From: Escherichia phage Turkey5 | DNA length: 64,000 nt | Sequence record: PQ471516.1 | Reading direction: 5' to 3' (one strand) | In this document: positions 20,522 to 26,083 of the stretch, piece by piece | Layout of the letters: each line of letters starts with the position of its first letter | Position numbering within the stretch: position 1 is the stretch's first letter | Program-made: the position numbers and the translations under genes | Notes under the pieces: model-generated | Databases searched by the model: none | What the model saw: only the letters and a program-made list of their open reading frames with translations | What the model was told of the DNA's origin: nothing

Positions 20522-20752
20522 GTGAAAAACTTAAGTAAAGATGAATACGATGAGTTACTTATACGAACTGTTAATAAAGCCTTTGGAGCCGCTACACCGT
20601 TGATACGTTTGGATTACTTCCTTTCGGCTACTCTAGGAACTAACTATCAGGATTTTTGGATAGATAAGTATATTGCACAACTAAAAGAAGATATAACTTA
20701 CAAGGTAGTCAATTACACTATACAAAACGCTATTACTAAAGGTAACAAATGA
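20522..20752 (+). CDS. LGT-xx-Q family paralog (family A)
   Basis: GTG start after AAGGAG; motif LGTNYQDFWIDKYIAQLKEDI. Confidence 0.8.
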   Translation: MKNLSKDEYDELLIRTVNKAFGAATPLIRLDYFLSATLGTNYQDFWIDKYIAQLKEDITYKVVNYTIQNAITKGNK

Positions 20753-20976
20753 AAGTCATAACACAAACACAAGCGTATTCACTTATGCTGCTTTACATGG
20801 ATGACTTAACCAGTATCTCCCGTGACCTCAATCCTTTGATTAGGGGTCATCTGCAATGTGAGATTCGCATGTTGGCTGTACTGGGGACCAACTTTCAACT
20901 GGAGTACGTTGAAGAATATCTTTACGCACTGAAGAGGTATATTGCACATGAAGCACATCTCGCCGGACGAACATGA
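20749..20976 (+). CDS. family A paralog
   Basis: ATGA overlap; motif LGTNFQLEYVEEYLYALKRYI. Confidence 0.8.
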   Translation: MKVITQTQAYSLMLLYMDDLTSISRDLNPLIRGHLQCEIRMLAVLGTNFQLEYVEEYLYALKRYIAHEAHLAGRT

Positions 20977-21166
20977 AGAAATCATTAGAAAACTCACACA
21001 GCAAGCATTAAATCTGTATAACGATCCATCTAAAACATGGTATGAAAATAGAATCGCAGTGAGTGACTTATGGGTTCTGCACTTTATCGGGACACAGTAT
21101 CAAGAAAGGTATCTGGATCAATTGATTGGACATTTACTGCAAGGAATTATAATTAAATGCGAATGA
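20948..21166 (+). CDS. family A paralog
   Basis: ATG 20948 gives family-type N-terminus MKHISPDEH; motif IGTQYQERYLDQL. Confidence 0.75.
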   Translation: MKHISPDEHEEIIRKLTQQALNLYNDPSKTWYENRIAVSDLWVLHFIGTQYQERYLDQLIGHLLQGIIIKCE

Positions 21167-21405
21167 AAATCCTAAGCGAAGTAGAATTTTCTGAAAGAAT
21201 GAAACTAGGAAGAAACGCCAGATTAAAAGTCTACGATGAAGTGGGGTTAACTAACACACAAAGGGCCGTAAAGCGTGCGGAAATAACATTACCTTACTTC
21301 CTTGGGACGAACTATCAGGAAACGATGATTGAGAACTATATAAATGACCTTAAATTTCACATCCATGAAACATATAAAGGTGTACTGAATGAAAAAACTA
21401 AGTAA
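21163..21405 (+). CDS. family A paralog
   Basis: ATGA overlap; MKILSEVEF; motif LGTNYQETMIENYINDLK. Confidence 0.8.
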   Translation: MKILSEVEFSERMKLGRNARLKVYDEVGLTNTQRAVKRAEITLPYFLGTNYQETMIENYINDLKFHIHETYKGVLNEKTK

Positions 21406-21631
21406 TTACGATTACTTCAAACTATTGGACGGCATCAAAGGTGACATACGTTTAATTCATAAAACCGAAACCATTCCAAGGGACGATAGGATTATTATTG
21501 TATCAGAAATGAAACTCAAACTCCTTGTGGGAACCGATAGACAGAATATCGCGGTGGACTTACTTATATCATCCTTACGCAATAAGATATGGAACCAATA
21601 TAATGAAGACAATCGACATAAAGGAATTTAA
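21389..21631 (+). CDS. family A paralog
   Basis: MKKLSNYDY; motif VGTDRQNIAVDLLISSLRNKI. Confidence 0.8.
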   Translation: MKKLSNYDYFKLLDGIKGDIRLIHKTETIPRDDRIIIVSEMKLKLLVGTDRQNIAVDLLISSLRNKIWNQYNEDNRHKGI

Positions 21632-21830
21632 CATTAGACTGGCTCGAACTCGTGCACTAAGACAACAGATTTTCTACGATACAAACACACCACAAACCAA
21701 AAAGGATGTTGCAATATCAGAGATTAACATGTATAGTACCTTGGGAACGCAATACCAAGAGATGTACGTCCAAGAGCATGTACTGAACTTGAAAAAGGAA
21801 ATCCAACATGAAATACATCGATGCCGCTGA
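21603..21830 (+). CDS. family A paralog
   Basis: ATG 21603 (MKTIDIKEF); motif LGTQYQEMYVQEHVLNLKKEI. Confidence 0.75.
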   Translation: MKTIDIKEFNIRLARTRALRQQIFYDTNTPQTKKDVAISEINMYSTLGTQYQEMYVQEHVLNLKKEIQHEIHRCR

Positions 21831-22047
21831 AAAACAACGTAGATTAATGGAATCGCTTAAAGCATGTAAAAAGATTTTCAATGACTATACGATTACACAT
21901 GAAGAACGAATGGTGCTAATCGCTGAAACCCGCGTTCTGGTTATGCTGGGAACATCTGAACAGGAAGGTGCAGTTGAAATCTTACTTAAGGAAATGCAAT
22001 TCCACTTAAAACGAAGAGACAAAGATGAAACACTTGACAAGCGATGA
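21808..22047 (+). CDS. family A paralog
   Basis: motif LGTSEQEGAVEILLKEMQ. Confidence 0.8.
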   Translation: MKYIDAAEKQRRLMESLKACKKIFNDYTITHEERMVLIAETRVLVMLGTSEQEGAVEILLKEMQFHLKRRDKDETLDKR

Positions 22048-22285
22048 ATTGAATGCTAAATTAAACCATGCTTTCACGTTAAGAACAAGAATTATGATGA
22101 ACAAGAATTACAGCATAAACGAAAAACGTATCCTCTGCGTAGAAGCTACTATGGGTGTACTGTTAGGAACTACCAAGCAAGAGCATCACGTTAATCTTGT
22201 TATCATGGAATTACTCCAGGAAATCAAAGGTAAAATCTATATTCAAAATATGAGAAAAGCTATCCACAGGAAGGATACTGTATGA
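22025..22285 (+). CDS. family A paralog
   Basis: MKHLTSDEL; motif LGTTKQEHHVNLVIMELLQEI. Confidence 0.8.
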   Translation: MKHLTSDELNAKLNHAFTLRTRIMMNKNYSINEKRILCVEATMGVLLGTTKQEHHVNLVIMELLQEIKGKIYIQNMRKAIHRKDTV

Positions 22286-22500
22286 AGATGTTGAGTCCTC
22301 TGGAATACATTTTAAAAATAAGCTCTACTAAACCAACCTATAATAACCTTTGTTCTACTCTGGACTTAACCAAAACAGAAAAAGATCTACTAAGGCGTGA
22401 TTTGGAGTTGGGTGTACTGTTAGGGACAAACTATCAAGAAAATTATGAAGTGTACTTTATCGAATCTTTAATCAGAGAAATAGAATGCAAAATGAAATGA
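22282..22500 (+). CDS. family A paralog
   Basis: ATGA overlap; motif LGTNYQENYEVYFIESLIREI. Confidence 0.8.
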   Translation: MKMLSPLEYILKISSTKPTYNNLCSTLDLTKTEKDLLRRDLELGVLLGTNYQENYEVYFIESLIREIECKMK

Positions 22501-24604: not shown

Positions 24605-24806
24605 ATACGCAGAAATCATTTTCAATTCTATACACAAGTACCAGTACTTAAAAGATAATTACGAATCGATAGAGTTAGAAGTTAAAAAAGCAGACTTAGA
24701 TGTATTAATAGCTTTAGGTACTAATTATCAAAAGTACAGTACTCCAAGATTAATAGAAGTATTACTACAAGAGGTCCAAAGTAAATGCAATGACAATAAC
24801 AATTAA
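24570..24806 (+). CDS. family A paralog
   Basis: motif LGTNYQKYSTPRLIEVLLQEV. Confidence 0.8.
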   Translation: MNKKIKILTKSEYAEIIFNSIHKYQYLKDNYESIELEVKKADLDVLIALGTNYQKYSTPRLIEVLLQEVQSKCNDNNN

Positions 24807-24831
24807 TAAGAACATAGTAGTAATACAGTAC

Positions 24832-25056
24832 ATGAGTTCTGTGCAGTACAAAAATGAAATTGCTAAAATGCAGAGCAATAGTACAGAAGACCGTTCTAAG
24901 TACTTGTGGTTAGTACAATCCAGAGAAATCGTTTTAAATAAATTTATAGGGACAGATGCACAAGAGTATTGCTTAGAGCAGTACATTGAAGCGTTGATGA
25001 TGCACATCAGAGGTCTTAAGAAATTACGTTACAGTATTGACAGTACCAGAAAGTAG
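24832..25056 (+). CDS. family A paralog
   Basis: start chosen to match family length (alternative 24790); motif IGTDAQEYCLEQYIEALMMHI. Confidence 0.7.
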   Translation: MSSVQYKNEIAKMQSNSTEDRSKYLWLVQSREIVLNKFIGTDAQEYCLEQYIEALMMHIRGLKKLRYSIDSTRK

Positions 25057-25065
25057 TGCTATAGT
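25037..25065 (+). promoter_or_regulatory. internal promoter
   Basis: TTGACA 25037-17-TATAGT 25060. Confidence 0.6.
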
Positions 25066-25094
25066 ACCTGTACGTTCAATAAAGGGTAGAGATT

Positions 25095-25331
25095 ATGATT
25101 AAATTAGCATTCGGTATTGTAGTACTGGCACTTGCAATCAGCTTAGGTCTAGCTGCACTAGAAGTTAATGAATTAGAAGAGATGCATTGCACAAAGACAG
25201 GACAGAGTAGAGTTGAAACGGTTATGATACCCGTGACGGTTATTGTGAATAACATGCCTATCACAAATCTGATTCCTACCCTAACGACAACGTACAAGTA
25301 CACTTGTGATGACGGAGAGCGATGGAGATAA
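25095..25331 (+). CDS. small membrane-anchored/secreted protein (78 aa)
   Basis: GGGTAGAG RBS; N-terminus MIKLAFGIVVLALAISLGLAALE is hydrophobic; minus ORF 25076..25345 rejected. Confidence 0.7.
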   Translation: MIKLAFGIVVLALAISLGLAALEVNELEEMHCTKTGQSRVETVMIPVTVIVNNMPITNLIPTLTTTYKYTCDDGERWR

Positions 25332-25570
25332 TGCATTACAAACATCTTCCAGAAATGGAATTCAGACGCATGTCCAAATCAATCAGACAAAAATACATTG
25401 CAACACAAAGGTACAACCTAAAGTACAAGCACAATATCCATGACGAACGATTGCTGTACGTAGTAGGGACCGAGTATCAGGATAGGGTTGTTAATTCATA
25501 TTTGTACGCCCTAAAAGAGTACATCCTATATCTTTGTAATAACACACAGCACATACAGGACATAAAATGA
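25331..25570 (+). CDS. family A paralog
   Basis: TAATG junction (alternative ATG 25322); motif VGTEYQDRVVNSYLYALKEYI. Confidence 0.75.
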   Translation: MHYKHLPEMEFRRMSKSIRQKYIATQRYNLKYKHNIHDERLLYVVGTEYQDRVVNSYLYALKEYILYLCNNTQHIQDIK

Positions 25571-25887
25571 AATTTAATATCCTAAGAGTATCAAAAAGAG
25601 CGATTTATGCATATGAGTTTAATTATGATCAATTTGATGTAGATATCATTTTGTACAAGAACCGTGAAGGTGAAATGCTTTTTAAGTACCAAAATAGTGA
25701 AGCAGATAATATTCCTTTACCGGATTTAACCAAAATGCAAGAGGATGAATTCTTTCAGCAGAGCTTAGTATACGATATTGATTTTTATAGTATAGATATT
25801 CTTTTAGCTTTACAGAAAAAGATGCACGAAATCTTTAATGATTTAGCCCAAGGCGATGATAGTGCAAGGTTCGTATTCAATGTTTAG
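25567..25887 (+). CDS. FQ-motif family paralog (family B, short class)
   Basis: ATGA overlap; motif EDEFFQQSLVYD. Confidence 0.8.
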   Translation: MKFNILRVSKRAIYAYEFNYDQFDVDIILYKNREGEMLFKYQNSEADNIPLPDLTKMQEDEFFQQSLVYDIDFYSIDILLALQKKMHEIFNDLAQGDDSARFVFNV

Positions 25888-26083
25888 AAACATAGATCCC
25901 AGTCAGTACGCAACCATGTACAGAGATTATTGGATGCAAAGTTCCAGTACCAAGTCCCTTGCGGAATTTCGTATGATATATTTTCTTGGTACAGAGAATC
26001 AAGAAGAAACGATGCTGGACTATCTTGAAGTACTAAAGGTTGAAGTACAAGATGAATACATATTAGGGGTTATAGAGCAGTGA
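25880..26083 (+). CDS. family A paralog
   Basis: ATG 25880 (alternative 25856); motif LGTENQEETMLDYLEVLKVEV. Confidence 0.75.
   Translation: MFRNIDPSQYATMYRDYWMQSSSTKSLAEFRMIYFLGTENQEETMLDYLEVLKVEVQDEYILGVIEQ

Follow-up and report, generated by a model that had tools for sequence, protein, structure and literature searches.

Within a window of 64,000 nt from Escherichia phage Turkey5 (PQ471516.1; the window is the whole stretch of DNA analyzed here), positions 20522-26083 harbor an array of small genes, which we call family B. In the window the family has 22 members, all on the plus strand and 64-88 amino acids (aa) long when family-consistent starts are used (typically ∼75 aa), and 18 of the 22 genes form a run at 20522-25056. 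The DNA is that of an Asteriusvirus-type jumbo coliphage. The closest relative of the segment 20500-26100, as found by megablast, is vB_EcoM_JNE01 (Asteriusvirus, 355.6 kb), with 96.4% identity over 97% of the query; other jumbo coliphages of the 121Q/PBECO4 type match this segment in small patches only. All genes under the megablast match carry the label "hypothetical protein". The G+C content of the window is 33-40%, coding is almost wholly on the plus strand, and no tRNA genes were found in it.

Family B is a real paralogous family. Hidden Markov models (HMMs) built with one member left out recovered every member, with E from 6e-20 to 3.6e-7, and all-against-all BLASTP, which is independent of the HMM, placed 20 of the 22 members in one cluster. 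Among the 998 six-frame open reading frames (ORFs; minimum 30 aa) of the window, the HMM of all 22 members found no further one, the next best ORF having E = 0.22. The same model retrieved 26 members in the syntenic part of phage 121Q and 21 in JNE01, although no sequences of these two phages had been used in its training. The initial annotation of this DNA had proposed at least 22 copies of a ∼75-aa protein, 18 of them in the run at 20522-25056 and others at 25331, 25880, 29670 and 35828; both the number and all the places hold. It had also listed a diverged candidate at 34164, which is not a member: the ORF 34164-34475 gave no HMM match at E ≤ 10 and an hhalign probability of 0.9%, and it belongs to phrog_11429.

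The proteins share the LGTxxQE motif recognized in that annotation. In the 22 window members G39 and Q43 are invariant and T40 is nearly so, and G[TS]xxQ is found at residues 38-60 of each protein. Of the 998 six-frame ORFs only 24 have the pattern [LIVMFW]G[TS]xxQ, all 22 family members among them. With starts of the MKxL[ST] type, neighboring genes overlap by 4-35 nt at 14 of the 16 B-B junctions within the run, in agreement with the overlaps described earlier.

All 22 members matched phrog_4148 (PHROGs v4, function unknown; best E = 1.6e-18), B1 covering profile positions 1-71 of 74. As judged by these profile matches, family B is by membership phrog_4148 and nothing else. This accords with the initial statement that the proteins could not be assigned to a named family. 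The PHROG entry, although it describes the identical family, carries no function, structure or context, and the copy number of the array, its position, its divergence pattern and the fold are not in it. Pfam, NCBIfam and PDB sequence searches with the B members returned sub-threshold noise only, and a match to interferon-omega (E = 0.014) was dismissed as a 40-residue helical coincidence. In a profile search of 1.84 billion cluster representatives we obtained 85 proteins at E ≤ 1e-3; 84 of them were 44-96 aa long and one 122 aa, with a single matched stretch in each, except for one with two. We also searched 50,697 phage records by tblastn with two different concatenated sets of B members. Both query sets yielded the same number of records, 35, comprising 31 Escherichia and four Salmonella phages of 310-386 kb, and no match was found in Klebsiella RaK2, Cronobacter GAP32 or CBB at E ≤ 0.01. 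Our literature search found no paper describing the B array.

A role as a component of a bacterial defence system was considered and rejected, as PADLOC returned weak, isolated matches, none of them common to the members. In particular, the members at 21808-22047 and 24570-24806 matched models of the cyclic-oligonucleotide-based antiphage signaling system (CBASS; E1-E2, E = 1.8e-3; cyclase, E = 4e-4). When the 26 members of 121Q were run as a control, one of them matched an unrelated model just as weakly (CARF_HEPN, E = 5e-4), and the window matches were therefore taken as noise from short helical sequences.

The AlphaFold2 model of the B protein, made from the alignment of 22 sequences, has three helices at residues 6-20, 26-36 and 43-74 and a beta-bridge from residue 2 to residue 40 (predicted local distance difference test 96.9, predicted template modeling score 0.78). 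A fold search with this model against PDB gave no informative neighbor. Column entropies were calculated over 122 distinct family B sequences. Q43 is kept in all 122; conserved hydrophobic core columns are L4, Y9, L13, L34, L38, V47, Y50, I51, L54 and I58, and the conserved polar columns are E8, E31, G39, T40, Q43 and E44, with nearly all the remaining positions above 3 bits. Asparagine or aspartate at position 41 and glutamate or aspartate at 44 would fit a helix N-capping box, which suggests that part of the LGTxxQE motif is probably structural. The isoelectric points (pI) of the paralogs range from 4.2 to 10.0, and the net charge varies widely. This spread disfavors a common role in nucleic-acid binding or DNA mimicry; protein binding by B would be plausible.

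The initial annotation had thought of a small DNA- or protein-binding adaptor, and the DNA-binding half of this idea deserves a separate discussion. The proteins could be regulators of phage or host transcription related to helix-turn-helix (HTH) or ribbon-helix-helix (RHH) proteins, with which they share a short likeness consisting of a hydrophobic residue, G-T/S and a polar helix start. We take the hGTxxQ motif to resemble the turn and the beginning of the recognition helix in the 434 repressor and Cro, and the N-terminal strand followed by G-x-S/T/N before a helix recalls RHH proteins. In addition, two of the 22 members matched HTH_26 faintly. However, the best of these matches had E = 0.054, far below the gathering score, and the gathering thresholds of HTH_26 and HTH_3 were not reached by any member. 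In the predicted structure, helix 3 is ∼32 residues long and six residues separate it from helix 2, which is not the HTH geometry; no fold similarity was found to the Cro/C1-type HTH domains (PF13443, PF01381) or to RHH proteins, and the lengths and connections of the helices are unlike theirs. An HTH or RHH identity was rejected on these grounds. Moreover, the pI is below 7 in nine of the 22 members, and we know of no precedent for at least 22 regulators in one operon. We therefore consider it very unlikely that family B consists of DNA-binding regulators.

The position of the array becomes clear from comparison with phage fEgEco12. Positions 1-20258 of the window are colinear with 1048-20892 of fEgEco12 at 86-98% identity, and the similarity ends thereafter. 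The fEgEco12 genome has a direct terminal repeat (DTR) of 20,993 bp, predicted by PhageTerm and confirmed by restriction digest (PMC13070987). In that genome, the ORF of the first B gene starts at 21,049 (annotated coding sequence from 21,091), beyond the DTR end at 20,993, and 27 B copies stand in a row. By homology, the window from 1 to ∼20,360 would correspond to the left DTR and the B array to the first unique sequence, with the B1 start ∼160 bp past the inner edge of the repeat.

Whereas 0.14 perfect TTGACA-N16/17-TATAAT sites would be expected in the window, 12 were found, every one of them on the plus strand. Ten of them lie at 2748-18609, in the DTR-equivalent part, and the other two at 34478 and 56031. 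This clustering indicates that the repeat holds small genes, arranged as a cassette, which are preceded by host promoters of the consensus type. Most of the perfect promoters have a common spacer and -10 core, AGTACTGTATAAT, which suggests a phage-specific variant of an early promoter. The equivalent region with RpoD promoters in the related phage CBB was interpreted by its authors as early and involved in host take-over (PMC5259590). Literature searches found no Asteriusvirus transcriptome.

The array itself seems to be served by a promoter at the repeat edge. Downstream of the promoter-like site 20464-20491, AAGGAG is found 5 nt ahead of the GTG start of B1 (20522), and in an alignment of the window with JNE01, 121Q, fEgEco12 and phAPEC6 the -35 element and its flanks are invariant, and the Shine-Dalgarno (SD) sequence of B1, GGAGTCCC, is conserved. 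Scoring of ribosome-binding sites showed a 6-nt SD at B1 only, the later B genes having matches of 4-5 nt or none. Together with the overlaps, the weak or absent SD sequences suggest translational coupling along the run. No intrinsic terminator was predicted on the plus strand inside the 18-gene run; the next promoter-like site after the run start is at 25037-25065, and the next predicted plus-strand terminator is at 27650-27671.

As the B proteins are small, numerous and encoded at the genome end presumed to be the first to enter the cell, they might also be packaged or structural components, for instance internal proteins injected with the DNA. However, none of the products gp449-gp499 of phAPEC6, whose genes cover the arrays, is among the 62 virion proteins detected by electrospray ionization tandem mass spectrometry in published data for this relative, although small proteins can be missed by the method. 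The sigma-70 promoters and the place of the array, too, are what one would expect of early rather than late genes. A virion role is extremely improbable.

Three further elements were observed in or beside the repeat. The tandem duplication at 20194-20353 overlaps the 3′ end of the gene 19998-20207 and is absent from JNE01, 121Q, fEgEco12 and phAPEC6. A non-coding element at 20383-20445, GGGATTGGACTATG...ATGCGTGGGGGG...GGGTAACCTTAGC, is strongly conserved in the five phages. From its place, which corresponds approximately to the end of the fEgEco12 terminal repeat, a function as a signal for terminase or end processing would be conceivable, as would a structured RNA. Rfam yielded no match for this element and no structured RNA in the B array. 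Finally, a 28-nt hairpin, AAAGGGATTGACTC(A/C)GGTCAGTCCCTTT, is present in three copies (13314-13341, 16619-16646 and 18881-18908) as part of a ∼200-bp intergenic element repeated in the terminal-repeat region. It has a TTGACT -35 box within the stem and TATTAT downstream, and resembles a combined terminator and promoter.

The B array adjoins an array of a second family, A, characterized by an EExxFQxS motif and present in ∼38 copies in the window, as counted with an iterative HMM that may be somewhat inclusive. Family A is an orphan both in sequence and in predicted fold. It was found in 36 phage records, with the genus counts seen for B plus one more Escherichia phage. The additional record appears to be that of phage EJP2 (OQ411014.1, classified as Asteriusvirus), where 27 A copies are situated within 1-37873. 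In the EJP2 record, tblastn gave no B match, and the B HMM found nothing at E ≤ 0.01 within the first 38 kb. The A array of EJP2 starts right after the ortholog of the window gene 19090-20018, where B starts in other phages. Hence, a phage can be viable without any of the B array, and A is not dependent on B.

These data bear on the suggestion of the initial annotation that A copies are scattered inside the B array and that the two families work together. Only one A copy (25567-25887) stands among B genes, and two B copies (29670 and 35828) lie inside the much larger A array. The B proteins could still be cognate partners of the A proteins, such as adaptors, chaperones or immunity-like proteins, acting in pairs. 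The families are adjacent and partly interleaved in every examined locus that contains B, and of the four outlying B copies, three are immediately followed by an A copy whose start they overlap (25322/25567, 25856/26080 and 35828/36024). The co-occurrence check recommended in the initial annotation also gave nearly equal distributions, 35 records for B and 36 for A. All carriers, however, are one clade with conserved gene order, so that the co-occurrence is explained by common descent and is not independent evidence. Moreover, the copy numbers differ, being 22 B and ∼38 A in the window and 31 B and 37 A in the first 50 kb of fEgEco12, no A copy interrupts the 18 B genes of the run, and EJP2 retains A without B. 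Neither one-to-one adjacency nor strict co-occurrence was thus observed. The profiles are unrelated, and a common superfamily of A and B was rejected (hhalign probability 0.3%). Therefore, while the proximity and the near-identical distribution stand, an obligate partnership is unlikely, given the unequal numbers and the long run devoid of A, and pairing as the explanation of family B seems quite improbable.

The array differs strongly in its conservation from the adjacent repeat. Between 4 and 20 kb of the window, 121Q aligns almost throughout, at ∼90% nucleotide identity; from the array start (20.5 kb) to ∼48 kb no nucleotide identity is detectable, small islands excepted. In these alignments, phages that are otherwise similar cease to be alignable at the B array. 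At the protein level, the best 121Q match of most window paralogs has 25-45% identity, no better than the best paralog in the window itself, and there are three clearer pairs, at 42%, 55% and 70%. The closest pair in the window is formed by the adjacent B13 and B14 (52%). As no pair exceeds this value, the array is old and did not arise in a recent burst. Tandem Repeats Finder detected no DNA-level tandem repeat inside the B array, the duplication upstream of it being the only one.

The number of B copies is zero in EJP2, 21 in JNE01, 22 in the window, 26 in 121Q, at least 30 in phAPEC6 and 31 in fEgEco12, and partial metagenome contigs contain 12-17. In JNE01, B9 is missing owing to a clean 173-bp deletion (at 13780-13790 of the JNE01 locus); the codons left from its end are joined to B8, whose product is 95 aa long there. 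This is a recent loss of a single copy within the array. Relative to JNE01, 20 B genes gave a pooled dN/dS of 0.27, based on 64 non-synonymous and 55 synonymous differences; the value was 0.26 in 16 A genes and 0.10 in 25 genes of the terminal repeat. This means that the B genes are real and constrained, less tightly than their neighbors in the repeat.

One could argue from the same observations that the array has no significant function and that duplication, in a region beside the terminal repeat prone to recombination, produced it as an effectively neutral side effect. A viable relative lacks all of it, single copies are lost, and the constraint is weaker than in the DTR genes. Against this, all 22 frames are intact despite the divergence, the dN/dS is far lower than 1, the same residues of the core and the polar set recur in the 122 sequences, and the promoter and SD sequence are conserved. 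Furthermore, the five array-bearing phages in which copies were counted have 21-31 of them, and B was detected throughout the 35 positive records. We regard a neutral array as unlikely.

The coordinates of the features are listed in Table 1. Among the B copies there are two genes, 23273-23641 and 25095-25331, that are not members of either A or B. Outside this locus, the window contains one more small tandem family at 57454-58283, with three adjacent overlapping genes of 90-101 aa that form one BLASTP cluster.

Table 1. Features of the family B locus and its surroundings (positions in the window).
Feature	Position	Strand	Evidence or comment
DTR-equivalent region, left	1-20360	+	Small-gene cassette, each gene behind a consensus sigma-70 promoter; inner boundary near 20360 by homology
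80-bp perfect tandem duplication, 2.0 copies	20194-20353	.	Tandem Repeats Finder; adjoins the putative DTR boundary
Sigma-70-like promoter, TTGACT-16-TAAAAT	20464-20491	+	Promoter scan; upstream of B1
B1, 76 aa, GTG start	20522-20752	+	HMM, leave-one-out
B2, 75 aa	20749-20976	+	HMM, leave-one-out
B3, 72 aa from ATG; alternative start TTG at 20942	20948-21166	+	HMM
B4, 82 aa	21157-21405	+	HMM
B5, 80 aa	21389-21631	+	HMM
B6, 75 aa; family-consistent start ATG 21603, not TTG 21525	21603-21830	+	HMM
B7, 79 aa	21808-22047	+	HMM
B8, 86 aa	22025-22285	+	HMM
B9, 72 aa; deleted in JNE01	22282-22500	+	HMM
B10, 84 aa	22485-22739	+	HMM
B11, 85 aa; alternative start 22744	22711-22968	+	HMM
B12, 75 aa	22983-23210	+	HMM
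Unrelated 122-aa gene interrupting the B run	23273-23641	+	No A or B HMM, PHROG or Pfam match
B13, 74 aa	23645-23869	+	HMM
B14, 79 aa	23866-24105	+	HMM
B15, 81 aa	24102-24347	+	HMM
B16, 86 aa	24344-24604	+	HMM
B17, 78 aa	24570-24806	+	HMM
B18, 88 aa; final gene of the contiguous run	24790-25056	+	HMM
Sigma-70-like promoter, TTGACA-17-TATAGT, extended -10 TG, 11/12 consensus	25037-25065	+	End of the 18-gene run, before the 25095 gene
78-aa protein, hydrophobic N-terminus, phrog_8826	25095-25331	+	
B19, 82 aa; alternative start 25331	25322-25570	+	HMM
Family A member, 106 aa, FFQQS motif; sole A copy among B genes	25567-25887	+	
B20, 75 aa; alternative start 25880	25856-26083	+	HMM
Family A array, ∼36 of ∼38 A members, EExxFQxS motif, 106-196 aa	26080-48977	+	
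B21, 64 aa, GS replacing GT; inside the A array	29670-29864	+	HMM, leave-one-out
B22, 69 aa, GTG start; inside the A array	35828-36037	+	HMM, leave-one-out

Taken together, we interpret family B as a lineage-specific, fast-diverging and dispensable accessory family of small soluble proteins, which would be early, non-structural and directed at the host, and give this reading as a whole about an even chance of being correct. Under such a scenario, the host RNA polymerase would start at the conserved promoter next to the repeat and transcribe the B block early, into a single polycistronic message or a few of them, probably supplemented by read-through from promoters within the repeat, and translation would pass from gene to gene by coupling along the message. 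Each paralog would present its own variable surface on the common three-helix scaffold and recognize a target of its own, with host factors and defence proteins as the most likely candidates. The array might then serve as a dispensable repertoire tuning host take-over and host range.

Several points weigh against this interpretation. The DTR boundary in Turkey5 is placed by homology, and the early timing of B is derived from the promoter consensus and position. The high similarity of the terminal repeats could reflect recent exchange of repeats rather than fast evolution of the array. The dN/dS of 0.27, obtained from two close genomes, means purifying selection overall. A dispensable family with variable copy number also fits little or no selective value, and the AlphaFold2 model is based on only 22 aligned sequences.

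Some known systems resemble the proposed one in part. In Bacillus phage SPO1 (host-takeover module) and phage T5 (pre-early genes of the left terminal repeat), small early genes are clustered within or next to a long terminal repeat and have strong promoters of the host-sigma consensus; their products are non-structural, and many are dispensable. The B array likewise lies beside a terminal repeat behind promoters of the host-sigma consensus. However, the SPO1 and T5 modules contain mostly unrelated genes, whereas family B comprises 20-30 paralogs of one fold located immediately beyond the repeat. We found no resemblance of B to these modules in sequence or fold, and the early expression of B is a prediction.

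Among eukaryotic viruses, the multigene families MGF110, MGF360 and MGF505 of African swine fever virus (ASFV) and the host-range families and gene accordions of poxviruses are tandem arrays of diverged paralogs near terminal repeats, with a copy number that varies between isolates. They are not needed for growth in culture and have been connected with host range or immune evasion. The likeness is an analogy only, as the host domain and the protein folds differ from those of B. Family B, perhaps together with A, might be a repertoire of target-specific inhibitors built on one miniature scaffold, each neutralizing another host or defence protein; the host range would then be determined by which copies are gained, are lost or diverge, and the array would be a bacterial-virus counterpart of the ASFV and poxvirus terminal families. 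We offer this more specific version tentatively, as a possibility that we ourselves think rather doubtful.

Another parallel is the Rak2-like jumbo phage vB_PcaM_CBB, in which 22 paralogous ORFs were reported among the hypothetical genes (PMC5259590). The CBB group is related to the carriers of B, and duplication likewise yields paralogs there, but B itself was found by tblastn only in Asteriusvirus-type phages of Escherichia and Salmonella.

What was already known is that these genes exist in GenBank as hypothetical ones and the family as an unannotated PHROG, and that large viruses have early, lineage-specific multigene families. The fold and size of family B, its placement at the repeat edge, the break point in the alignments and the natural isolate without B appear to be new. 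About 60 genes of the window fall into two orphan families (∼22 B and ∼38 A), which is near a tenth of a genome of ∼580 genes, and all of them are labeled as hypothetical. Our analysis turns this anonymous block into a testable hypothesis on host take-over and host range in therapeutic jumbo coliphages. Phage EJP2, a deletion or replacement variant without B genes, offers a ready-made natural comparison with the array-bearing phages, and speaks against obligate A-B pairing as well. If the paralogs bind distinct host targets, the array would represent a compact library of natural small-protein inhibitors.

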